Source: Adineta ricciae (lineage: Eukaryota). From it: a stretch of 24,335 nt of DNA. Of this stretch, positions 1-22,300 are shown piece after piece. The notes beneath the pieces are model-generated. The model did not search any database, was not told the origin of the DNA, and saw only the letters and a program-made list of their open reading frames with translations. Both the position numbers and the translations under genes were made by a program. Position 1 is the first letter of the stretch. Every line of letters starts with the position of its first letter. Location: positions 1 through 24,335 of the forward strand of contig CAJNOJ010000203.1 of the NCBI GenBank assembly GCA_905250025.1, read 5' to 3'.

Positions 1-555
1 TGAAATAGCCGCCGGGGTCTAGTGGACATTCGTTGAGTTCTGTTAAGTCACGATCTGTCATTTCCGCGAGAAGACAGTATGCTGAACGCAACATGATGGG
101 TATATCGCCGATATGTACCTTTTCATACTTTTTCTCTTCGGGTGGTGAATTATCTTTATAAACAGTTTTATTTAGATCGACATATAAGGGTGCTGCATAG
201 GTTAAGTTTCTTAAGCGAGCTTCATTAGGCCAAAGATGGGCTACTCCGTCATTGGCTTGGTGAACTGGTTTGGACAAATAGACTTGTCCGAATTTAAGGG
301 TACACTTTAGTGCTGCTTTATGAGCTGTATGAGTATATTGTGCTTGTGCTTGCAGTTCAATCGGTAGAGAATCTTCTACAATGCGTTGTACAGACATCTG
401 AATGAACTCATCGAATGAGTCAAGTTGCTGACGAACAAGACCTTTCTCGTCGAAATAGGATGATATGACTGTCCAGCAAGCTTCTTGCCAAAGTTCAGGT
501 GTAATATCTCGATCATCATCGTTTTCGATTTGCGCTTGGTCATTGCTCGAATACA
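1..555 (-). CDS. POLR2B: RNA polymerase II second-largest subunit (RPB2/POLR2B), N-terminal ~185 codons; gene continues beyond window start
   Basis: Minus-strand translation from the ATG at 555-553 gives [70 protein letters not shown]...[36 protein letters not shown]. This is near-identical to human POLR2B ([45 protein letters not shown]..., [32 protein letters not shown]). No intron in this stretch. The listed 74-aa ORF 376..600 is a different, spurious frame. Confidence 0.93.
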
Positions 556-876
556 TGTTATTACTAAGTTGTTCTGCAATGAAATAATGAAAAATCCCAA
601 ATGACGGTGCTTATATGCGCCTGAGAAGCAAAAAGATGGCCAATCCGATAAATTGTACCAAACTAGATGTTTTCAAATGTTCTCGAAACTTTCACGGTTG
701 AGTTTTCTGAGAAGCTGTAGGTGTTTTTCTAGTTTCGATTAAAGATGGCTCTGTAGTCTAATGAAAAGTAATCATTGGTGCGCATCTCACCAATCGAAAT
801 CATCGAGTTTACAGACAAAATCAGAATGCATGTTTTCCGTTTTTGAAAACAGTACAGCACGCGGAAAGGAGAAAAG
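556..876. promoter_or_regulatory. Short (321-bp) divergent intergenic region between the POLR2B (minus) and NDH-2 (plus) start codons; putative bidirectional promoter with CCAAT boxes, and a polypyrimidine-AG acceptor 17-24 nt upstream of each ATG
   Basis: CCAAT at 640-644 and 790-794 (plus) and ATTGG at 774-778. The acceptor ttcattatttcattgcAG on the minus strand ends about 17 nt upstream of the POLR2B ATG. The acceptor tttttgaaaacAG (about 841-853) lies 24 nt upstream of the NDH-2 ATG (877). Confidence 0.4.
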
Positions 877-3144
877 ATGTTTTCTCGGTCGAATCTGGTT
901 CTTCAACAATTACTGATAAAGAATGCATCCCGGAATAGTTCGCTGGAACAAGTTCAATATGTGAAGCCAATACTTACTCGTAATCTTGCTTGGTTCCGCG
1001 GTCAAGCAGTGAAGGAAGCTTTTGGTATGTGAATAAAACAATATTTTGCTATGACTTGAGCTTATCTGTCGAATGTGACTAGGGACAAGGCTGAAGCGGC
1101 GCTTAAGAAATCTTCTCGTCGTAACGATTGTGGGTGGTGGTTTTTATTACGGTTATCGTAGTTATAAGAACTATAAGTGGTATCAAGAAATAACGGAGTC
1201 GGATGAAGTTATTGGTTCAAAGCCTCGGATCGTTGTATTGGGATCAGGTAAGTGATTGATTAATTATCGATTGAATGGAAATCAAGGTTTGTTTAGGATG
1301 GGGTGCTGTGCCATTATTAAAACATCTGGATAGCAAAAAATATGAAGTTGTTTGTGTCTCTCCGCGGAATTACTTTTTAATGACGCCTTTATTACCATCT
1401 GTTAGCGTTGGAACGGTGGAAACTCGAACAGTAATAGAATCGATCCGTTCATTAGTTGGACCACGTGTGAAATATGTGGAAGCAGATTGCGTTGATATTG
1501 ATCCGAAATCAAAAACTATTACATGTAATAGCGATGGTGCGAATCCAGTGTCTCGTGGTGATGATGTCAAAGCTATAGTTAAATCATCGAAACGCGAAGG
1601 GGGTGCATCATCACGAATAATCAAAGATTCAGGTACAGGAGGCTTAATATGAACTAACTTTGAGCCAGTCGTTCGTTTGAATTTAGCGCGTAGTAGACCA
1701 CAATTTCAGATGAAATATGATGCACTGGTTGTCGCAATTGGTTCTGAGAATAACACATTTAATACTCCTGGCGTTGAAGAGCATGCTCATTTTTTGAAGG
1801 AAGTCCTCGACGCTCGACGTATACGGTCAGCGATCAGTGATGCATTCGAATCAGCTAACACGCCGTCTCAAACTGATGAAGAAAGAAAGCGGCTTCTTCA
1901 TTTCGTTGTTGTTGGTGGTGGACCAACAGGCGTCGAATTCGCCGCCGAGGTAAGAATAATACGTAACCGATCGCGAAAAATCTGCCCTTTGTTTTCTGTA
2001 TGTAGCTTGCTGATTTAGTTCGTGAAGATCTTCATCATTATTTTCCACGACTTGTTGCCAATGATGTGAAAATAACATTGATTGAAGCACTTGATCATGT
2101 CCTATCTATGATGGTTTGACATCATTCTTTTGCTAAGAATCTAAACATCTCTTTTCATTTATTTACGTGTAGGACAAACAAATTAGTGACTATACAGAAA
2201 AACATTTTCGTCGTGAAAATATCGAAGTTCTCATGAATACATTTGTGAAAGAAGTGAAACAACGTGAAGTTGTTATTCAATTCAAAGGTTCCAATCAATT
2301 AACATCTATTCCATGTTCGGTTGTCGTTTGGGCAACAGGAATCAAGGCACGACCGTTAACAAATCGTATCCGAGAGATCATTGGCCTAAAAGTTCAAAGC
2401 AACCGCATGGGAATTCTGACTGATCGGTATTTACGTGTCAAAGGTGTCGAAGATGGTTCGATCTTTGCTATTGGAGACTGTGCTACCATTGAACAACCTA
2501 AACTAGTCGATCAAATTCAAACATTATTCGAAGAAGCAGATACACAACATCGTGGAGCACTTGATCTTCAGCAATTTAAGTTATTGGTCGAACGAAAAGT
2601 GGCTGAGTTTCCACAGGTAATGTTCCTGTACGTATCACCTTTCAATATTATTGGCTGGTTTTTCTTCTAGCTTGACATCTTCTCGAAAACAATCGAAAAA
2701 ACGTTTCAAGAAGCTGATAAAGATAAATCAGGTTTTCTGACTCTCGCTGCACTTCATTTGGCACTCGAAAAAGCTGATCGCAAAATTCGCGCCCTACCTG
2801 CAACCGCTCAAGTCGCCTCTCAGGAAGGCCGATACGTTGCTGATCTACTTAACCAAATACCAAATTTATCAGCCAACGATTATCAACAACATGATCTCAA
2901 ACCGTTTCGCTACAAACATATGGGCTCATTGGCTTATGTTGGTAGCGATTCTGCTGTGTTAGATTTTACTGGTACAAGACCTATTCTTGATCTCTTCAAC
3001 CTACAGCCGCTATCCGGCCGTAGTGCTGCTTATCTCTGGAAGTCATTTTATTTTACCGAAATGTTTACAGGACGCACGAAGACATTACTGGCATTTGATT
3101 GGATCCGTACGCACTTGTACGGACGAGATATAAGTCGCTACTGA
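877..3144 (+). CDS. Type-II alternative NADH:quinone oxidoreductase (NDH-2, NDI1/NDE/NDB-like) with an EF-hand-like insertion; 7 exons
   Basis: Exons: 877-1024, 1083-1247, 1297-1632, 1687-1949, 2006-2113, 2173-2616, 2671-3144 (stop TGA 3142-3144); all GT-AG, introns 46-59 bp. Protein: an Arg/Ser-rich N-terminal presequence [20 protein letters not shown]... that looks like a mitochondrial targeting signal; a hydrophobic segment [15 protein letters not shown]; then [50 protein letters not shown] (dinucleotide fold 1, split by an intron between GSG and WGA). Further: [41 protein letters not shown] (fold 2), [48 protein letters not shown]. These match yeast Ndi1/Nde1 block by block. A ~75-aa insert between GDCA and LPATAQVA contains two EF-hand-like loops ([15 protein letters not shown] and [15 protein letters not shown]). 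The exon 3/4 junction (1632|1687) is the least certain boundary. Confidence 0.85.
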
Positions 3145-3312: not shown

Positions 3313-3841
3313 ATGGATTTAAGTATCGTAAACGATGATTATTACCTATCCGGTATGGCTGCTTTAGTTGGTGATATTGATAGTGAGTGATTGTTTCACA
3401 GACTTGCTACATATGGAACATATTTGCTTAGAACAGTTGATGATTATGTTACGTGATGGTCGAACGTTGATTGCTCACCTACGCAGTCTTGATCAGTTTG
3501 GTTGGAAACTTCATGAAGAATTCTCTGCTCTATTGTGAGTTTTATTATGTTTAGGTAATCTTGTGCTTCATCAAGCATTCGAACGTATCTGTGTCGGTCG
3601 ACACTATGCAGATATTCCTCGTGGTTTATTCGTTATCCGTGGCGAGAATGTTCTGTTCATTGGCGAATTAGACTTCTATCAACCTTTACGCGTTCCGTTG
3701 GTGGAAGTAACCATAGAAGAAATACTCAAATTGCAGAAAGAAGACATCGAAAAGAAGGAACAGATCGAAAAAGTTCGACGGAAAGCGATGGTTGAACATG
3801 GCCTAGTCGATGAAGGAAATCCGATTGAAGAGCAATATTAA
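3313..3841 (+). CDS. LSM1: LSM1 (Sm-like protein of the cytoplasmic Lsm1-7 mRNA-decay ring); 3 exons
   Basis: Exons 3313-3382, 3432-3500, 3555-3841 (stop TAA 3839-3841); introns 49 and 54 bp. Protein ...MAALVGDIDKQLMIMLRDGRTLIAHLRSLDQFGNLVLHQAFERICVGRHYADIPRGLFVIRGENVLFIGELD... aligns with human LSM1 (LIEDIDKKHLVLLRDGRTLIGFLRSIDQFANLVLHQTVERIHVGKKYGDIPRGIFVVRGENVVLLGEID). The start may instead be the internal Met (MAAL) at about 3355. Confidence 0.85.
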
Positions 3842-7433: not shown

Positions 7434-9717
7434 TTATTTCGGCATCCATCCGACTGGATAACCTTTAGCTGCATTTTCAGTTTTCAACCATTTGTATAGC
7501 GGTTTAAAGAAGTCCAGGACTGCATTGGACTCAAGTTTTCTTTCACCGGTTAACTGTTCTAAAATGTCCGACCAGGACTTTGATGAACCCATCGCTAGCA
7601 TTTCTTTGAATCTTCGTCCAACTTCTTTGTTGCCATAAATATTACACATGTACAAATCCTCTGTTTGCCCTTTGATTCGACAAAGTGCTCGATAGAATTG
7701 AAACTGAAGAATATGTGCTATGAAGTATCTTGCGTAGGGCACATTGGATGGAATATGATATTTCGCTCCAGCATCGAAATGAACCGCATCATTTCGATGT
7801 ACAGCTGCCATGATACCGCCATGTTCGACACGTAATGCCCACCACATTGAATTTAATTCATAATTACGATTGATTTGATTACGGAAAAGTGCAAAACGGT
7901 ATTTGTCCATGGCGTAAGCAAACGGAAGAAAGGCAACTTTTTGCAATGCTAGACGTAGAAGATAGTTGATTTTAAATTGTTCATTGACAGCATTTTCATC
8001 GAGAAAGCCCAGCTTGATTAAATTGGCCGGAGAAACTTGAGTTTGCATAGAAAACGACAAAGTTTGATGTGCAATTAATAGCGAAACTTACTTGCAAACA
8101 TGCCGATTGTATCGCCGATAGCTTCGTGAAAACCGGAATTTGCTCCAGAACGGTACACAAATGGTTGTGCTTTGTCGTATGACATATAATATTCAATATG
8201 ACCCATTTCATGATGAATGGTATAAAAGTAATCATCGTCGATTTGTGTACAAATTTTCGTGCGATAGTCATCATGGTAGCCCAGATCAAAGGCCGAGGCA
8301 TGACAAACAACATCACGATCTTTCGGCTTTTTGAACATGCTGCGTGCCCAAAATTTCGGTGTCATAGGATAAAGGTCGATAGATGTGAAGAACTGTTCAG
8401 CTGTTTTATACATTTGATGAATGGAAAACTTTTGATCACGTAACACTTGAGTAATATTTGGAACTGGAGCATTTGGATAAGGTATAAAATCATCAAAACG
8501 CGATTCCCAACTCTGAGCCCACATGTTACCTAAAAAGGGCTTTACAATACAAGATATTCTTAGTAAGAAGAATCTACCGAGCAGATGAGCAGGAATAGGT
8601 CCATTACAACTGAATTTATTTGGATACATCGCACACAGACGACCGCGAACATATGCATGAATTTGCTCATACAACGGTGCGATATCTTTGAGAATTTGAT
8701 CCAATATACCTTCAAATTCGGTAGCATTTCCCATCTCATAGTCCTCGATCCATTCTTCCTAAAAGAAAGAAGATCAGTGTTGCTGTATTCGTATAAGGGA
8801 TTTACCTACAGACAAATCACTATAACCGTTTGCTTTGCAGTTCTTATTCAATAAATCGATGTATGTCAGATAAACAGGTCGAACTTTCATTCCGCATGCA
8901 TCATACCATCCTTCCCATGCCCATGTTAAACGGTCGTAATCTTTCTCTTTTTTCATCAATTCCGTTAAATAAGGCTCAATCGTGTGACACTGTTTAGTAT
9001 TATTCAATTCGCAAACAGTTGTCGTTCCGAAGATCGATTCTAACTGTGAGCTCAACTTCGAGGCTACTTCAACTTCGTTATCGTCGTAACTTATTGTACC
9101 TCTTGCACATCGATTCATAACACGTTTCAGGTCTTCGTTTGTCGAATTTTTCAATTGTGCATTGAACTTCTTTGCAATCGGTAGCGTCAGTCGTGCAAAC
9201 GGAGATACCAGCAGGTTCTGATTACTCATTAGTTTCGCATTTTCAGATGTAATGTTCGTTTCATAATTCCATTCAAGTAAACTACTAACCTAAGGCAAAC
9301 TTCGATATATCAACATTCAATTCTTAATCTTACTTGAGAGTAACGTTGTGAAATTCGAGTGTGCCATTCTAACCATCGTGCTGCAGTCGCTTCGTCAGCA
9401 TAGCTTTTAATTTGTGGCATCTTTTTGATCTCATCGCTGTTCAACTGGTTCCATAAGTTAATGTCGACGTGATCGTTCGGATCGACTTGATCTCGAAACT
9501 TTTCTAATGTGTCCAGATCATCGATGTTAGGCTTTTCCCCGTATACCTTCCATAAGATTTCTTCCGTAAACTCAACGCCGTACTCTTCATGAAGAAAAAC
9601 AACAAATGCTTTTAATTCACGTTGAGAAAACTGTGTCCGTTTCTTTAGCGAAGAAGCGAAATGAATCGCACTGATCAACAAAAGAACACAAATTGTATTC
9701 TTCATTTGCCGCTGCAT
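7434..9717 (-). CDS. Angiotensin-converting-enzyme-like M2 zinc peptidyl-dipeptidase; single catalytic domain, secreted/soluble; 4 exons
   Basis: Exons (minus) 9717-9334, 9289-8810, 8758-8092, 8035-7434 (stop TAA at 7436-7434); introns 44, 51 and 56 bp. N-terminal signal peptide MQRQMKNTICVLLLISAIHFASS. ACE-family blocks: WNYETNITSEN, LTWAWEGWYDACG, PAHLLGNMWAQSWE, HASAFDLGYHDDYRTKICT, the zinc motif TIHHEMGHIEYY (HEXXH), GANSGFHEAIGD (second zinc ligand), FLPFAYAMDKYRFALF, GAKYHIPSNVPYARYFIAHILQFQF. The sequence ends ...GYPVGWMPK with no C-terminal TM anchor. Confidence 0.88.
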
Positions 9718-12428: not shown

Positions 12429-13583
12429 TTATAGTTGTGGCTGTTTCCACCGGTATCCGATTGTAAAACTACCTGTCGTACGTATTGATGATGCTGTCGG
12501 CTGACGGATAAGCTGAAATTGTTCATAGTTCAATGAATTAGTCGGATTTATCGACGTATCATTATCATAAACATTAATCGTCTCAAAATAATGCGACATT
12601 TTAATTTGACATTTAATTAGAAATCGTCTTAATTCTCGTCGAAATTTTGAGCCGAAAAAAATGTAAATATAAAAGTTCATTGCAAATGAAATGTGATAAA
12701 TCAAATGAAAATAATGTTCTAATTGTTTAAAGAATTTCGTTTGAAATCTTTCATCATTAGACAGTAAACGCCATGTATGAATACACGCATATGGTGCGCA
12801 AACAATTAGATACGATGTCGAAACAGTTAACAACAACTTGGTCATTGAACGCGACGCTTTGCATCGTGTTAAAACATGAAAGTTCTTCAATTGAGAGTTG
12901 TTCGTTTGAAATAACAGTTGATGCTGGCTATTCCTCATTCGTCGTAGTGATATCAAGATGATTGCATTCATGGTTATAATCATCATATACGGAATGAGAA
13001 AAACGATCAAACAGTCGATAATATCCATGATCGCATTTAGTTTGCGAAATTTTTCGTAGGAATAACAATATCCACCGACAATACCGACAATGAATGGAAT
13101 GTACGAATAGATCAAACAGGCAATAAGAACGATACATAAAGCCAAACAACGTGATCGATACCATGAGAGAACATAAGAAACACGAATAGGCTGTGTAACA
13201 GCAAATAAACGTTGAGCCGTGAATGCAACTGTATAATACGCATTGATAAAATTACAAACGTACGTTAGGTATAAACTTGATTGACAAATGATTGGATGAT
13301 GTAAAATATTGATATAATTTGTCAACCATAAACAAAACAATACCGATAAATACATCGTATCTGATATAGCCATGTAGAATAGAAATGGATATACGGACAT
13401 CGTTGTTCCAACGGTTGTTCGTAAGGCTCGTTGACCAAAAATGATAATAACAAAACCATTGCCGATACATCCGATAATGACTAATAACAGCAAATAGATG
13501 TGTGTAAAGAAGAAATTGACAGGATTGAATTCAGTTGATAGTAGAGTGGTGTAATTAGAAGGCATTGATGTCAGATTCGCCAT
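12429..13583 (-). CDS. Intronless class-A (rhodopsin-like) orphan G-protein-coupled receptor, 384 aa
   Basis: Single uninterrupted 1155-nt ORF. It has seven hydrophobic segments, N-glycosylation sites in the N-terminus (NLT, NYT), and a GNGFVIIIF TM1 motif. The DRY position is occupied by AQRL, there is a TM6 CAPY motif, and TM7 carries NFYIYIFF (NPxxY-like) followed by a basic helix-8 (GSKFRRELRRF). No closer family assignment is possible from sequence alone. Confidence 0.75.
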   Translation of the reverse strand: MANLTSMPSNYTTLLSTEFNPVNFFFTHIYLLLLVIIGCIGNGFVIIIFGQRALRTTVGTTMSVYPFLFYMAISDTMYLSVLFCLWLTNYINILHHPIICQSSLYLTYVCNFINAYYTVAFTAQRLFAVTQPIRVSYVLSWYRSRCLALCIVLIACLIYSYIPFIVGIVGGYCYSYEKFRKLNAIMDIIDCLIVFLIPYMMIITMNAIILISLRRMRNSQHQLLFQTNNSQLKNFHVLTRCKASRSMTKLLLTVSTSYLIVCAPYACIHTWRLLSNDERFQTKFFKQLEHYFHLIYHISFAMNFYIYIFFGSKFRRELRRFLIKCQIKMSHYFETINVYDNDTSINPTNSLNYEQFQLIRQPTASSIRTTGSFTIGYRWKQPQL

Positions 13584-14877: not shown

Positions 14878-17102
14878 TCAGTTCGTAACTTTCTTTGAAA
14901 AGTTCGCATCAATTTTTAAAGTTATTTTATGCCAGGAATTATTCATCACACCGCGAATATTCCATATACCTAATGGAGAGTCAGGTTGCGAATTCGAATG
15001 GACGTCCATTGCGCGACAAACGACGTCGAAAGGCTCCGAAGGGAGATCTTTCAATGGAATGTGAGTAGACCAAAGAGTCCATGCCCATGCACGCATATAC
15101 GGTTGAGCAAGTTGTTCCAAATCAGCTTGCAACCAAGTTTTCCTGTAGAAAGAAAATAAGAACTTTATCTTGACACATATATGATTAAAAATTCTTTTCA
15201 AAAACAAGTTCTTGTCTCGTGAACTTCCTATACAATAAGTATAAATAACAGCTACTTATATATTCAAAGGCGCAAATCTCGATAATATCAAACACGAATA
15301 GATACTGTTCTTCATTAGAACCAGACACTCGGTATTATTTGGTTAATGCGCCATATAGAGTAGAAAAGAAAACGGACGTTATTCTCCGCTTCTGCTGCCC
15401 ACGTTGTGTTCGCTTGTTTCTTTTACATTTATGTCTCGAGGTCATTCTAAACTGGTGATTAGCTTACCCATGATCGAGACTGATCTGCACGTTTTGAACT
15501 TGCCTTCCGCCTCCACCGACTGCGTAACCTTTGATTGTTAATGTTTGATTTTTAGCATCCTCACCAGTCGGTTTAACCGAAAGAATTTTCACTTTATTCC
15601 CATCTTCAGTCGATGCAGGATAACAAATCGCTGATTGAACATTTGATTCTTGTATTGCTGGTACACGATCATAATCGGCTTGTTGTGGCTGTTTGATGGA
15701 CTGTGGCAGAACTTTATAATCAGCCTTTTGCCAATGGCTATCCGATTCCTCGTTGGAAACAATAATTCGATTGACCCACTTGACACTTCGCGCGCCGACT
15801 GTGCCCGGGACAATAATACGTAGAGGATATCCATGATCACTAGTTAGAGTTTCATCATTCATTTCATATGCAATGAGAACATCATCACTGAGTGCTTTCT
15901 CCATTGGAATCGATGCACCATAACATCTAAAAAGTAAAATAAACATACGTTGCATTTTTCTGGGTCAATCAAGCTTTTTTAACCTTTGTGATGTATCACA
16001 ATCAAGTCCCACAAACTGCACATGTTTGCCCTCTTTGAGTAAGCCAAACGATTCTAAGACGTCGCGTAATTTCACACCTGTCCACCGAGCATTGCCAATA
16101 GCGCCAACATACCATGGTGTGCCTTGTACAGAACCTTGTGCATCGTTATTCATAGCTGCACGACGATTTCCTGCACATTGTAAAGCAGATGTAACTGTAT
16201 GCGATTGGTATTTATCTTTTAAATCATCGTAGGAAAGAGTATGTGCTGAAGTTCCATCGCCAATCTCCAGTTTGAACTCGTTAATGTTGACGAAGGGTAC
16301 GTGCATATGATTTCGAACATAGAATTTTTCGATTGGTGTCAGAAAAGATGAAACGAGAACTGTAGGCTTTGTTTCGGCATTGAATGGCTTTTCCGAGCGA
16401 ATGAAAAAGTTTTCAGTCGCATTGATTCGCTCAGGATCGTATTGAAATAAATCAACGACTTCCTCTTGAGCTTTCGCATTTGCTTCGCGTTCACCTACAA
16501 AATTCGACGCTGAAAACAGAAACAGATATTCCTGCTCGTACGATACCTGGTGGAAGATTTCCTATGCGATATTGTTCTAAGGTCTCGTACACATGATCAA
16601 TTTGATGGATAGTAAAGATTTTCCAACATGCTTCTAAAGCTTTACCGGCAGTTTTTAAAATTTGTTTTCCTCCGGGATGATTTTCAACGAATGCGCTTAT
16701 ATCATAGACTCCATCTTTATAAGCGAGCCAATAGCCTTAAGAAAAATTCCATTGAAATTTTTTCCGAGAAGATGAATTTTCAAATTTCTATTTGTTTCTG
16801 GTTTTTAGAGAAATCAATACCATTTTCTTTCGTTGTATGCTTTGCTACTTCAGTCATGCTATACGTCGGTAAAGATGATTTATGTTCACCAATAACGAAC
16901 GGAGTTTTTGTTGTGTCAGCATAAACTACTGGTCTGTATTTGTTGAAAAGATAACCTTTAAAAGAAATGGGACAGTATTACATTTCATGGTCATGTGTAC
17001 AGATAAAATGATTCTACCTGCAGCTAAACTACTAGTGAAACCAATAGTAAGAATAGATGCTTTGGATTTTTGGCGAAAAATAGTTGTTATTCGTGATCGC
17101 AT
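14878..17102 (-). CDS. SUOX: Sulfite oxidase (mitochondrial; cytochrome b5 + Moco + dimerisation domains); 6 exons
   Basis: Exons (minus) 17102-17018, 16955-16821, 16735-16547, 16509-15984, 15926-15468, 15142-14878 (stop TGA 14880-14878). Introns are 62, 85, 37, 57 and 323 bp. Presequence MRSRITTIFRQKSKASILTIGF. Cyt b5 heme motif HTTKENGYWLAYKDGVYDISAFVENHPGG. Moco domain FNAETKPTVLVSSFLTPIEKFYVRNHMHVP, LQCAGNRR, GTPWYVGAIGNARWTGVKLRDVL, YGASIPMEKALSDDVLIAYEMNDETLTSDHGYPLRIIVPGTVGARSVKWVNRI, SHWQKADYK. Dimerisation domain TIKGYAVGGGGRQVQNVQISLDHGKTW...RAWAWTLW...NIRGVMNNSWH. It is colinear with human SUOX. Confidence 0.9.
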
Positions 17103-17300: not shown

Positions 17301-18520
17301 ATGAGTTTAACAGGAGTTGTGTCGGAAACACCCAATGTTTTACTGTCGCCCGAAAGACTTCTTATGGAAGTACCACAAGGTCTACATAACTCCATGGCAA
17401 TTGCATCGTTAATTATTTGGTACGTTTCATCTGCTGCAACACTATTCTCAAATAAATATATCCTAAGTACTTACAATGGCGATGCATTTTCACTAGGTAT
17501 TCTACGCAAATTTCGTTCATTTGGATCAATTTTATTTGTTTCGTTCAATTCGTTTAGGAATGAATCAACTTCTTCTATCCGTGATAACAGGCTATGTTCA
17601 AATGCAAATCATGAATAGAATCTCGACGCAAATCCATAAGAATCCATCGACTGCCAAGGCAGTCTTTCAAGATATGTTTTTTATCGGTGCATTTCGTTGT
17701 GTTACAGTTATCCTCGGCTTAATCGCACTTAAACACATTGCTGTTTCATTTGTGGCAACTATCAAATCGTCTTCGCCTTTGTTCACTGTGATTATTAGTC
17801 GGATAATTTTAGGAGAAAAAACGGGCATTTGGACAAAATTCTCAATGGTGCCAATCACAGTTGGTCTTGGCCTGTGTAGTTCATTTGAATTGAGTTTCAA
17901 TATATTTGGCTTTCTGTGCGCCTTGGGAACAAATATTTTCGAATGGTAAAACGAAAAGAGAGATTTCCGATAAGGAAAAAATATTTCTTCTCCTTTTAGC
18001 TTACAAAACGTCTACTCAAAAGTGCTCATAAGTGGCGAACGCTATCGTTATACAGCTGTTGAATTACAGTTTTGGGCAAGTTTGGTCGCATCTGTTTTTC
18101 AGATACCTCTACTGTTTTACAATGTTCCTGTTTTGTCAGCGATACGTTCGACTTCTCTGACACTTTTTCTTTTATACATCTTTAATGGGATTTCATATCA
18201 TATTCAATCAGTTGCTGCTTATTCTGTCATGGCCTATATCTCGCCCATAACACATAGGTAACGTGTTAAGGTCTAGAGTTTGGTGTTGATTCATATCATT
18301 CCCTTTTAGCGTGGCTAATACGGTTAAGCGAGCATTGTTAATTTGGTTATCAGTATTGATTTTTCACAATCCAGTTACATTTCTTAGCGGTTTTGGTACA
18401 TTAACAGTTATCTTTGGGGTGATATTGTACAACGAAGCACGAGACATCGAGAAGAAGGCGGGAAATTCGTCTACTTCAGCTAATAATAACGGTCCAGTCA
18501 TAGCATGGAGAGATATTTGA
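17301..18520 (+). CDS. SLC35E-like nucleotide-sugar/triose-phosphate transporter family membrane protein; 4 exons
   Basis: Exons 17301-17496, 17558-17945, 18000-18257, 18310-18520 (stop TGA 18518-18520); introns 52-61 bp. The protein is multi-TM. Matches to human SLC35E1: [19 protein letters not shown] (LLWYALSAGGNVVNKVILS); [20 protein letters not shown]...[30 protein letters not shown] (VKATMPIWVVLLSRIIMKEK...[25 protein letters not shown]); [10 protein letters not shown]; [37 protein letters not shown]...GVILYN (LSYSVANATKRIMVITVSLIMLRNPVT...GVFLYN). Confidence 0.8.
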
Positions 18521-19362: not shown

Positions 19363-22300
19363 ATGGCCGATTCAAAAGTTAGCGGTGGTAAGACCAGTCA
19401 TCGGATGTATACAATACGAAACTCTAAATGTGTTCTTTGCTACTTTAGTCTATCGAATTCCTCCTTTCTACTATTTACATGTACTTGATCAAAATACCAA
19501 CGTCACTCGACTTGAAGTTGGTCCAAAAACCTTCGTCAAGCAAGATCATGAGAAGGTCATCCTCGGACCTGAACGCATGTTAATCATTCCGTATGTTCGC
19601 ATTCAATGTGATCGAAAGTAGTCATCTTATTTCTTTCGTATTTTCCTCTTTAGACCACGTCACTATTGTGTAGTGGAGAATCCAGCCATTCGAGACAAAG
19701 ATGGCAAAGTTGTTACAGATTCGAATGGTCAAGTGAAATTGCTTCACTCAGATGTTGATATTCGTTTCGCCCAAGAGCCATTTCCCCTCTATCCAGGAGA
19801 AGTTCTCAAACAAGCAGTCACACCATTAAAAGTCATTGAGCCTAACTGTGCATTACGTCTTCGTGCCGTCTTGGATTTTGTTGATGAAAACGATAAACAA
19901 ATTCGAGCTGGAGACGAATTTCTCTTTCAAGGACCTGGTATGCTTTGAAAAAAAAACCATCTCGTGTCAGTCATTCTTTCCCTTTCTTTTAGGTACCTAT
20001 CTTCCTCGTAAGGAGGTTAGTGTTGAAGAACAAATCAAAGCAGTCATCTTGAAACCAGGCGAAGCCGTTCGTTTACGTGCTAAAAAAGAAATGACAGATC
20101 GCGATGGTATTGAACGCGAAACAGGCGAAGAATGGCTGAACCGAACAGTCGGATCCTACTTACCCTTAGCCTATGAAGAAGTTGTCTCAACAGTCAAAGC
20201 CTATGTGCTTACTGATAAAGTGTGTATTTACCGCTACGATCTAATTCAAAATACACGACGAATGTTTGGGTTTGTTTTGTAGAAAGCACTTCATGTCCGT
20301 GCACTGCGCACATTTACGGATGCATTCAAACACAAACGTCTTCATGGTGAAGAATGGTTAATCTATGCCAGCGATGCCGAAACCTACATTCCCGACGTAT
20401 ATGAAGAGGTAGATTGGACAGCACTGTTTTGGAAAATAATATGAATTTGAATTTGATAGGTTGTTGGCGTTGTATCTGTAACCGTGTTGAACTCTCGTCA
20501 ATATTGCGTCATTCTTGATCCAGTTGGTTCTGACGGTAAACCACAGCTTGGAAAGAAAAAACTCGTTAAAGTATGATGCGCTCCAACTTGTATAAAGCAG
20601 AAAATATATCTAAATATCTTTTATAGGGCGAAAAATCCTTCTTCCTTCAGCCCGGTGAAAAATTAGCTAAAGGCATTCAAGATGTCTACGTTCTTGAAGA
20701 AGATGAAGGTCTTATCCTACGTTGCACAGAATCATTCAAAGAAGATGGGGTAAGTTTGTGACCATCGATCAATACATAATAAACTGTTTTGACGTTTTAT
20801 AGAAAGTCGTTAGAAATCCTGGTGATCGCTGGATGGTTCGCGGGCCTAAAGATTATATTCCAGCTGTTGAAGCTGAAGTTGTTCTTCGTCGTAAAGCAAC
20901 CCCATTGGATGTCAATGAAGGAATTTACGTTCGTGATGTTAAAACCGGTAAAATTCGATCGGTCATCGGCAGTACATATTTATTGACTGAAAATGAAGAA
21001 CTTTGGGAAAAAGATTTACCAGCACAAGTTGAGCAATTGATCACTTTAGATCCACGATACTTTGAAGATAAAGCAGGACTTCCTACTACTATTCCACCAC
21101 GTGATAAATCTAAAGTTGTTGTCTACCGTGTGCCACACAATGCATGTGTACAAATCTACGATTATAAATCAAAGAAGGCGCGTATTGTTTTTGGTCCTGA
21201 ACTCGTTATGCTTGGTCCCGATGAGCAATTCACCGTTTTGAATCTTTCCGGTGAAAAACCCAAAGTACCCAACAAAATCCGTGCTATCTGTCTTCTCTTG
21301 GGCCCGGAGTTTTCCAGTGATATTGTTACCATTGAATCAAGTGACCATGCTCGTCTATCTCTTCGACTTTCTTACAACTGGCACTTCGAAGTACGAAGAA
21401 TAGATTTCAGCAAACTAGATTTCATTGACGGTTTTGTTTACTTGTAGGTTACTGATCGTAATGACCCGAAAGAAGTTGCTAAACTCTTTTCAGTCCCTGA
21501 CTTCATCGGAGATTTCTGCAAAGCTGTTGCTGCCAAGATCCGTGGTGCCGTTGCTGCTATCCCTTTCGATGATTTTCATAAGAACTCAGCTAAAATCATT
21601 CGTACATCAGTATTTGGCCTTGATGAAAATAAACGAGTCAACAACCGATTACTATTTCCACAAAATAACTTGGTTTTAACTTCAATTGATATTCAAAGTG
21701 TCGAACCTGTTGATCAACGAACACGTGATGCACTTCAGAAGAGTGTCCAATTGGCTATCGAAGTATGTTGCGAAAGACAAGATTGAATTGTAGATAGAAA
21801 ATAATGATGATGATGATATCATTTAGATCACAACCAATTCACAAGAGGCTCAAGCTAAACATATGGCCTCTCGAACTGAACAAGAAGCCAAAGGTCATTT
21901 GGAACGACAGAAGATTACCGATGAAGCTGAAGGTAAGATTGAACCTGGCGAAAAATAGGACCGGGAAAACATCTATTGTTTATTTTTTTCAGCTGAAAAG
22001 GCTCGACGAAAACTATTGCAACTTCAAGCACTATCAGCTGCTGTTGAATCAACCGGTCAATCGCGTGCTGAAGCACAATCACGAGCTGAAGCTGCTAAAA
22101 TCGAGGGTGAAGCAGCAGTTGAACAAGGTAATATGATAACATTCTTTTGTTGAATAATTTTTAAACAACATAATTTCATTTTTTTTAGCCACACTTCGTG
22201 CCCAAGCAGCTAAGATCGAAGCTGACATCGAACTTTACCGATTAACTCAAGCTCGTGAATTGGAATTGAGCTATTCGAAATTAGTTTCTGATCTTGAAAT

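Follow-up and report, generated by a model that had tools for sequence, protein, structure and literature searches.

An NADH dehydrogenase of an algal-type subfamily with a degenerate EF-hand pair in the bdelloid rotifer Adineta ricciae: a probable horizontal acquisition

The stretch of Adineta ricciae DNA analysed here (contig CAJNOJ010000203.1, 24,335 nucleotides, referred to in full as the window) carries at positions 877-3144 of the plus strand a gene for an alternative (type II) NADH dehydrogenase, NDH-2. In silico analysis indicates that this is likely a functional, nuclear-encoded and mitochondrially targeted NAD(P)H:quinone oxidoreductase of the NDB type, belonging to an algal-type subfamily and most likely acquired horizontally by bdelloid rotifers. 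The enzyme family, its EF-hand insert and the large scale of horizontal transfer into bdelloids are already well described, and the gene itself has been predicted in public bdelloid assemblies under the automatic names “EF-hand domain-containing protein” and “NADH:ubiquinone reductase (non-electrogenic)”. The points worth keeping are: (i) the algal-type affiliation and probable horizontal origin; (ii) a degenerate EF-hand pair that is selectively maintained across the lineage; (iii) a pair of paralogs differing by Glu or Gln at the nucleotide-binding site. No paper linking NDH-2 with rotifers was found in the literature searched, the reviews of McDonald & Gospodaryov 2019 and Matus-Ortega et al. 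2011 lying outside that search.

The gene model was obtained by splice-site location and frame reading. It runs from ATG to TGA through seven exons and six introns, and the spliced exons form an uninterrupted coding sequence of 1938 nt (645 residues and TGA). All six introns are of the GT-AG type and measure 49-59 nt each. The same seven exons were mapped one by one in A. ricciae, Adineta vaga, the A. ricciae homoeolog, Rotaria socialis and an A. vaga paralog. A preliminary description of this stretch had reported a full spliced NDH-2 with six introns, and its coordinates, intron count and motif strings agree with the splice model and with the Pfam and PDB results. Compared with the window gene and its other orthologs, the public A. 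ricciae model P0001 (L002, CAJNOR010001244.1) starts 28 codons late (MKPILTRN…); the ATG upstream of that start (MFSRSN…) has been kept in the window sequence as well as in A. vaga, the homoeolog and Rotaria.

Every defining NDH-2 feature examined in the sequence or the model is present, i.e. the pair of GxGxxG motifs, the Pyr_redox_2 and NDH2_C domains, the AQxAxQ motif and the fold. Pyr_redox_2 (PF07992, aa 98-452, E 3e-50) and NDH2_C (PF22366, aa 571-641, E 9e-17) both score above their Pfam cutoffs, and Pyr_redox covers the NAD(P)H-binding unit (aa 288-373). In the family alignment both GxGxxG motifs (GSGWGA and GGGPTG) are invariant, and so are the GD motif and the C-terminal anchor domain, which are intact; the invariant columns are G293, G295, P296 and G298, and T533, A534, Q535, V536, A537, Q539 and G541. 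The AQxAxQ motif (ATAQVASQ), the quinone-site motif of NDH-2, is invariant across 56 homologs. A search of the PDB matched yeast Ndi1 (7e-86) in three blocks, and the breaks between them expose two insertions, at aa 185-222 and aa 445-525. The AlphaFold model, built with a 56-sequence alignment, has a mean pLDDT of 83.7 and a pTM of 0.79; Foldseek of this model returned 5jwb (TMt 0.91) and 4g6g (TMt 0.87), with PfNDH2 and Ndi1 superposed at TM 0.87-0.91. The ratio of non-synonymous to synonymous substitutions (dN/dS), taken from an exon-by-exon codon comparison, is 0.12 for the whole gene, 0.048 for the core and 0.08 for the EF insert against A. ricciae, and 0.078, 0.048 and 0.106, respectively, against A. 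vaga. Judged by these codon comparisons, the gene is under purifying selection.

The closest relatives of the NDH-2 protein are exclusively bdelloid: A. ricciae P0001 (97% identity), A. vaga P0002 (86%), A. steineri (81-83%) and Rotaria species (72-80%) supply all the top matches. Beyond the rotifers, the best matches are red algae, namely Erythrolobus (59%), Porphyridium (56%), Rhodosorus (53%, 693 bits) and Purpureofilum, followed by the cryptophytes Guillardia and Baffinella, by Tetraselmis and by environmental sequences. The best metazoan match is the octocoral Dendronephthya (40%, 443 bits), and sponges and cnidarians as a whole range from 38 to 42%. Four land-plant matches (P0026, P0027, P0042 and P0055; 1035-1128 aa) are about twice the normal length, which inflates their scores in the match lists; tandem NDB genes run together into one model, or a fusion to an adjacent gene, would account for their appearance.

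Two neighbour-joining (NJ) trees were constructed. One comprises 67 sequences and 542 columns, each less than 20% gapped, and uses Kimura distances with 200 bootstraps, and the other is confined to the catalytic core (405 columns, BLOSUM62 score distance), the N-terminus, the insertion and the EF insert being removed. In both, the family is divided into two subfamilies, A and B, with 100% bootstrap. The bdelloids, including Didymodactylos, are monophyletic with 100% bootstrap, also in the core-only tree. Subfamily A consists of bdelloids, red algae, cryptophytes, Tetraselmis, the choanoflagellate Salpingoeca macrocollata (EukProt EP00052, P0037) and further sequences, and subfamily B of land plants, Amoebozoa/Heterolobosea and a clade of sponge plus cnidarians. 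A search with the Dendronephthya protein yielded the cnidarian set (Rhopilema, Xenia, Hydra, Clytia and Sanderia), which groups with the sponge Oscarella, found via EukProt; no bdelloid sequence falls inside this sponge/cnidarian clade in the NJ trees. The preliminary description had presented the gene as a further member of a scattered animal NDH-2 set. This view does not hold, as the protein groups with the red-algal/cryptophyte subfamily at 100% bootstrap and carries its private insertion, a feature that the description does not mention. One subfamily-A gene, on contig L001, is intronless with 40% GC.

The insertion characteristic of subfamily A comprises 35-45 residues (aa 185-222 of the window protein), lies between the hairpin strands of the FAD domain and bears the motif SSSR-x-[IV]-x-D-[SG]-x-R-x-RP-x-F. 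Bdelloids, red algae, cryptophytes, Tetraselmis and S. macrocollata all carry it, and it is absent from the plants, cnidarians, sponge, amoebae and Ndi1 in the alignments compared. In the AlphaFold model, residues 185-213 are predicted to be disordered (pLDDT below 50). Subfamily A collapses to about five clusters among 1.84 billion representatives at 50% identity; beyond these clusters the scores fall and the alignments break at the insertion.

On these sequence comparisons it appears fairly probable that the bdelloid ancestor acquired the gene long ago from a red alga, or from an alga or protist related to one, and that the gene has since been domesticated. Horizontal transfer is the best explanation because of the placement in subfamily A at 100%, the private insertion, the lack of any other metazoan there and the foreign gene load of bdelloids. 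Bdelloids carry about 8-10% foreign genes, with about 6% of that load algal or plant (PMC3499245); among the supplements of Boschetti et al. 2012 that were examined, none holds an NADH-dehydrogenase entry (PMC3499245). The horizontal gene transfer (HGT) index of the same authors, i.e. the best non-metazoan minus the best metazoan bitscore with a threshold of 30 (PMC3499245), amounts here to about 250 (693 for Rhodosorus minus 443 for Dendronephthya), calculated from HMMER bitscores instead of blastx and with rotifer matches excluded as self. The gene is also physically linked to metazoan genes: it shares its contig with RPB2, LSM, angiotensin-converting enzyme (ACE), a G-protein-coupled receptor (GPCR) and major vault protein, with conserved synteny.

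Comparison of intron positions bears on the age of the gene in its host. The six bdelloid introns are common to the orthologs, the homoeolog and the paralog clade, and hence predate those duplications. None of the six coincides with the six introns of Dendronephthya, and none matches any of the nine Arabidopsis introns exactly. Intron 6 (phase 0, …PQ^L…) corresponds exactly to one of the nine introns of Rhodosorus marinus (L009), the naive chance of one such match being about 0.03; the shared position is only suggestive, because CAG| is a favoured insertion site. Two further positions (HFLK^E and TAQV^A) are shared by Rhodosorus and Arabidopsis, and both are missing from the bdelloid gene. The Porphyridium gene is intronless, with a GC content of 55%.

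The host is a bdelloid rotifer. The window matches A. ricciae contig CAJNOR010001244.1 at 93.5% DNA identity over 13.1 kb and is, by this comparison, an allelic haplotype of A. ricciae or of a very close relative. The N-terminal part of RPB2/POLR2B lies 320 bp away on one side and an LSM gene 170 bp away on the other, the latter identified from frame translations and from an annotated syntenic ortholog with PF01423; both neighbours had been named in the preliminary description. On A. vaga chromosome CP075492.1 the genes follow one another as they do in A. ricciae, in the order RPB2(-), NDH2(+), LSM, PAN2_N, Cript, HIT, ACE, GPCR, and the NDH2-LSM linkage recurs at the homoeologous locus of A. 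ricciae and in Rotaria socialis. In these alignments of loci, the gene has held its present place since before the divergence of Adineta and Rotaria. The GC content at third codon positions (GC3) of the NDH-2 coding sequence is 0.305, compared with 0.34 for the RPB2 fragment and 0.32 for the ACE fragment.

Two other origins have to be weighed against horizontal acquisition. That the sequence stems from an algal or protist contaminant or an assembly artefact might be suspected, since its closest non-rotifer relatives are algae and food organisms accompany bdelloid cultures and wild samples. Such an origin is, nevertheless, extremely improbable: the gene lies within a few hundred base pairs of RPB2 and LSM on one contig with ACE, GPCR and major vault protein, the same synteny occurs in three independent assemblies, including the chromosome-level A. 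vaga assembly and Rotaria, and paired homoeologs in the bdelloid style are present. The short introns and the GC3 value are host-like, in contrast to the intronless, GC-richer Porphyridium gene. Contamination was rejected on the grounds of synteny, intron style and GC3. The preliminary description had named a position inside a bacterial or fungal clade, together with contaminant-like flanking genes, as the outcome that would speak against a host gene; neither was found, and the phylogeny it proposed favours horizontal acquisition over vertical animal inheritance.

Vertical inheritance would make subfamily A an ancient eukaryotic or holozoan NDB paralog, kept by bdelloids and one choanoflagellate and lost in all other sampled animals. 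Two observations lend weight to it and count against a horizontal origin: S. macrocollata possesses a subfamily-A protein, insertion included, and within subfamily A a sister position of the Porphyridiophyceae to the bdelloids gets no more than 32-50% bootstrap. The case for a horizontal origin is further limited in that the trees are distance (NJ) trees only; several subfamily-A sequences (P0030, P0033, P0035 and P0041; Logan) come from read-archive or metagenome assemblies; and the finding that bdelloids are the only metazoans among the subfamily-A matches from 5.8 billion proteins was reached without a dedicated search of monogonont, seisonid and acanthocephalan genomes. Some introns of the family are also ancient, as the two positions common to Rhodosorus and Arabidopsis attest, and passages of PMC13286374 cite McDonald & Gospodaryov 2019 for repeated loss of NDH-2 and alternative oxidase (AOX) in animals. 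Against descent from a holozoan ancestor stand the make-up of subfamily A, whose named non-rotifer members are all algae save for a single choanoflagellate with which the bdelloids never pair at 10% bootstrap or more, and its narrowness, with so few clusters among the 1.84 billion representatives. The sponge and the cnidarians have subfamily B instead, many independent losses would be required, and foreign genes, some of them algal, make up about 8-10% of those of bdelloids (PMC3499245). Vertical inheritance is thereby considered unlikely, although far less remote than contamination.

A fuller course of events built on horizontal acquisition is somewhat probable. In a transfer from one eukaryote to another, the bdelloid ancestor would have captured an external NDB-type NADH dehydrogenase from a red or related alga, perhaps in the form of genomic DNA with introns, to judge from the shared phase-0 intron. 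Domestication would have followed, with the gain of six host introns, a host-like GC3 and a targeting region, and duplication would then have produced one clade of NADH type (Glu) and one of NADPH type (Gln), Ca2+ control being lost. Together with AOX, the enzyme would constitute a foreign-derived bypass of the respiratory chain that pumps no protons at all.

The second insertion revealed by Ndi1 is the EF-hand pair. It lies between GDCA and LPATAQ, comprises 85 aa (aa 445-529), is about 80 aa longer than the corresponding part of Ndi1 and falls between Ndi1 residues 356 and 357. The site assigned in the preliminary description, between GDCA and the quinone-motif region, proved correct, and the size of about 75 aa given there was too small. 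That description had also put the insert in the second Rossmann domain; it is situated downstream of Pyr_redox, between the GD and AQxAxQ motifs, where in the Ndi1 structure the chain returns to the FAD domain, outside the Rossmann domain that binds NAD(P)H. EF-hand_1 is recognised at aa 496-520 (27.4 bits, cutoff 25.4), and the pair model EF-hand_7 remains below its cutoff. In the AlphaFold model the insert folds twice as helix-loop-helix (H452-462/H472-482 and H496-503/H513-525; pLDDT about 80-89), and single-residue bridges pair at aa 470 and 511, as in a classic EF-hand pair. By position it aligns with the inserts of land-plant NDB, cnidarian, sponge, Amoebozoa, Heterolobosea, red-algal and cryptophyte proteins. 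The idea that the insert itself is a novelty was discarded, being ruled out by this positional homology in plants, amoebae, red algae, sponge and cnidarians. These alignments mark the insert as the defining feature of NDB-type NDH-2; what sets the bdelloids apart is its degeneracy alone.

A scan with PROSITE PS00018 detected no canonical loop in the window protein or its close orthologs. Loop 1 fails the pattern at positions 3, 5 and 12 (Gln3, Arg5, Gln12), and its sequence (DT[QE]HRGALDLQQ) is nearly invariant across the main Adineta/Rotaria clade. Loop 2 fails at position 12 only, where Ala is found (Ala or Thr in close orthologs), with canonical Asp1, Asp3, Ser5, Gly6, Leu8 and Thr9. The lack of Glu at position 12 of both loops (Gln and Ala instead), already remarked in the preliminary description, is thus confirmed by the scan. 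R. socialis, R. magnacalcarata and Didymodactylos still have Glu12 in loop 2, and a second bdelloid paralog clade has it in loop 1. Most non-rotifer members of the family have one or two canonical PS00018 loops, and some accepted members, e.g. Hydra, fail as well. Since dN/dS in the EF insert is only 0.08-0.106, the degenerate domain is conserved and not decaying.

Loss of the bidentate Glu at position 12 of an EF-hand loop usually abolishes or greatly weakens Ca2+ binding. Because Glu12 is missing from both loops, and loop 1 also lacks the ligands at positions 3 and 5, the enzyme is probably Ca2+-independent or weakly Ca2+-sensitive, and its EF domain would be maintained for a structural or regulatory role. 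Arabidopsis NDB4, an NADH-preferring enzyme on the intermembrane-space side that does not depend on Ca2+ (PMC6821020), offers by analogy a functional precedent for a Ca2+-independent member bearing EF-hands. Weighing on the other side, loop 2 retains five of six ligand positions, so that residual binding of Ca2+ or Mg2+ by this loop is possible. On a stronger version of that argument, Ca2+ regulation would persist as in plant NDB1/NDB2 rather than as in NDB4, the EF domain binding Ca2+ through loop 2 with water or backbone in place of Glu12, or sensing another cation or pH. The canonical residues of loop 2, the EF-hand_1 score above its Pfam cutoff, the EF-pair fold predicted with good confidence, purifying selection on the insert about as strong as on the core, and the Glu12 held by loop 2 in the two Rotaria species and Didymodactylos would all suit such retention. 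It is nonetheless rather doubtful in view of the usual effect of Glu12 loss, the three ligand positions gone from loop 1, the fact that PS00018 matches no loop, whether in the window protein or in close orthologs, and the existence of NDB4 as a Ca2+-independent NDB member with EF-hands. Hao & Rasmusson 2016 reportedly deal with how Ca2+-binding motifs and substrate-specificity residues have evolved in the NDB family.

The N-terminus, where the preliminary description had placed a presequence, is basic: its first 55 residues include 10 K/R against 2 D/E, with the first acidic residue at aa 24. The hydrophobic segment mentioned there is likewise present as a Gly-rich stretch at aa 58-75 (window 1106-1159; aa 60-74 in a narrower delimitation), conserved in subfamilies A and B, and AlphaFold places a long helix at aa 51-91. 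Such an arrangement fits an inner-membrane protein facing the intermembrane space, as in plant NDB, and an external NDB/NDE-like enzyme bypassing complex I is, by analogy, the best functional reading. The second strand of the NAD(P)H fold ends in Glu331, within VKITLIEA. According to a rule reportedly set out by Michalecka et al. 2004 and Hao & Rasmusson 2016, an acidic or non-acidic residue at this place distinguishes preference for NADH from preference for NADPH, and by this rule the enzyme is predicted to prefer NADH. In the second bdelloid paralog clade (A. vaga P0021, A. ricciae P0025 and A. steineri P0020; 62-70% identity) the sequence reads VKITLIQS, which suggests the non-acidic, NADPH-type state, as in plant NDB1. 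The A. vaga copy of this clade (L007, CP075496.1) lies about 170-190 kb from the chromosome end, and the clade (P0021) has partly lost the subfamily-A insertion.

In the mechanism proposed for the enzyme, the basic presequence and the hydrophobic, stop-transfer-like segment would place it on the outer face of the mitochondrial inner membrane, and there it would oxidise cytosolic or intermembrane-space NADH and reduce ubiquinone while pumping no protons. The result would be a rotenone-insensitive bypass of complex I. AOX, the co-occurrence of which had been put forward for checking in the preliminary description, has been reported in the bdelloid A. vaga (PMC7730656), and with it the enzyme may form an overflow route that conserves no energy. 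It counts against this proposal that targeting, membrane side, substrate and Ca2+ response are all deduced by sequence rules and by analogy with those plant and fungal relatives that have been characterised.

Comparison with known systems places the bdelloid enzyme nearest to the NDB-like NDH-2 of red algae and cryptophytes (Porphyridium purpureum “External alternative NAD(P)H-ubiquinone oxidoreductase B1”, Erythrolobus, Rhodosorus marinus, Purpureofilum, Guillardia and Baffinella), its closest non-rotifer homologs at 53-59%. Both share subfamily A with its 35-45-aa insertion, the site of the EF insert and the acidic NADH-type residue. The algal proteins differ in keeping at least one canonical EF loop, usually loop 2, and the bdelloid gene differs from the algal ones in its six private introns and a GC3 of 0.30, against the intronless Porphyridium gene with 55% GC, the position of intron 6 being common to Rhodosorus. 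Plant NDB1/NDB2, Ca2+-dependent and non-proton-pumping external NAD(P)H:ubiquinone oxidoreductases, have the same NDH-2 core, an EF pair at the homologous site and an N-terminal hydrophobic segment, but they belong to subfamily B, are 39-41% identical and lack the subfamily-A insertion. Passages of PMC4587368 describe a Ca2+ dependence of external NADPH oxidation in plants. The comparison of EF loops with plant NDB, advised in the preliminary description, showed loop 1 canonical and loop 2 degenerate in plants, whereas both are degenerate in the window protein; the insert as such, which that description had considered unusual, has positional homologues across the NDB-type family. Arabidopsis NDB4 is the predicted functional analogue, but it belongs to the plant subfamily-B lineage, and its loss of Ca2+ dependence would be independent of that proposed here. 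The sponge and cnidarian enzymes (Oscarella pearsei, Dendronephthya, Rhopilema, Clytia and Hydra) have the NDB-type architecture, Hydra also being without both canonical loops. They nevertheless group in subfamily B with plants and amoebae, show 38-42% identity, lack the insertion and, in Dendronephthya, have none of the six introns in common. Yeast Ndi1 and Plasmodium PfNDH2 share the fold and the cofactor and quinone motifs, but have neither the EF-hand insert nor the subfamily-A insertion, at 30-32% identity, and Ndi1 faces the matrix.

The coordinates of the gene, its parts and its neighbours are collected in Table 1. In the spacer between RPB2 and NDH-2, an inverted ATTGG (774-778)/CCAAT (790-794) pair is kept in A. 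ricciae and A. vaga and is probably part of a bidirectional promoter. A pyrimidine tract (831-845) followed by AG (851-852) upstream of the NDH-2 ATG may represent a candidate trans-splice acceptor; it is only partly conserved in A. vaga.

Table 1. Positions of the NDH-2 gene, its predicted elements and the neighbouring genes in the window
Feature	Position	Strand	Remarks
Exon 1	877-1024	+	aa 1-49 and split codon; basic presequence-like N-terminus
Exon 2	1083-1247	+	Gly-rich hydrophobic segment; start of FAD-binding GxGxxG (GSGWGA, aa 103-108, spanning intron 2)
Exon 3	1297-1632	+	first half of FAD domain; most of subfamily-A-specific insertion
Exon 4	1687-1949	+	end of insertion; start of NAD(P)H-binding domain, GGGPTG (aa 293-298, 1914-1931)
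Exon 5	2006-2113	+	NAD(P)H-binding beta-alpha-beta unit; Glu331 (2084-2086) in VKITLIEA
Exon 6	2173-2616	+	remaining NAD(P)H domain; GD motif IGDCA (aa 440-444, 2470-2484); first EF-hand
Intron 6	2617-2670	+	phase 0, ..FPQ^LD.., between both EF-hands
Exon 7	2671-3144	+	second EF-hand; quinone motif ATAQVASQ (aa 532-539, 2800-2823); NDH2_C (aa 571-641, 2917-3129)
Subfamily-A-specific insertion	1536-1703	+	aa 185-222, spans intron 3
EF-hand pair insert	2485-2793	+	aa 445-529, spans intron 6
EF loop 1	2539-2574	+	aa 463-474
EF loop 2	2716-2751	+	aa 504-515
RPB2/POLR2B, N-terminus	2-556	-	
Divergent intergenic region RPB2 (-)/NDH-2 (+)	557-876	.	about 320 bp
LSM gene	3313-3841		
Angiotensin-converting-enzyme-like peptidase M2	7434-9229	-	
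Rhodopsin-family GPCR	12429-13583	-	
Sulfite-oxidase-like molybdopterin oxidoreductase	15464-16306	-	
TPT/EamA transporter	17521-17949	+	
Major vault protein	19836-21447	+	

NDH-2 and AOX are studied as gene-therapy tools for defects of complex I and of complex III/IV, and as factors of stress tolerance in invertebrates. The gene described here adds a naturally animal-adapted NDH-2 that is spliced, predicted to be targeted and apparently free of Ca2+ control, and a single animal lineage supplies paralogs predicted to be of NADH type and of NADPH type. Should the algal origin be right, horizontal transfer in bdelloids has reached the core mitochondrial electron-transport chain, and “animal NDH-2” is not one vertically inherited family, which bears on how gains and losses of alternative respiratory enzymes are inferred across Metazoa. 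A foreign-derived bypass of this kind could, in that case, help bdelloids to control redox balance and reactive oxygen species during desiccation and rehydration.

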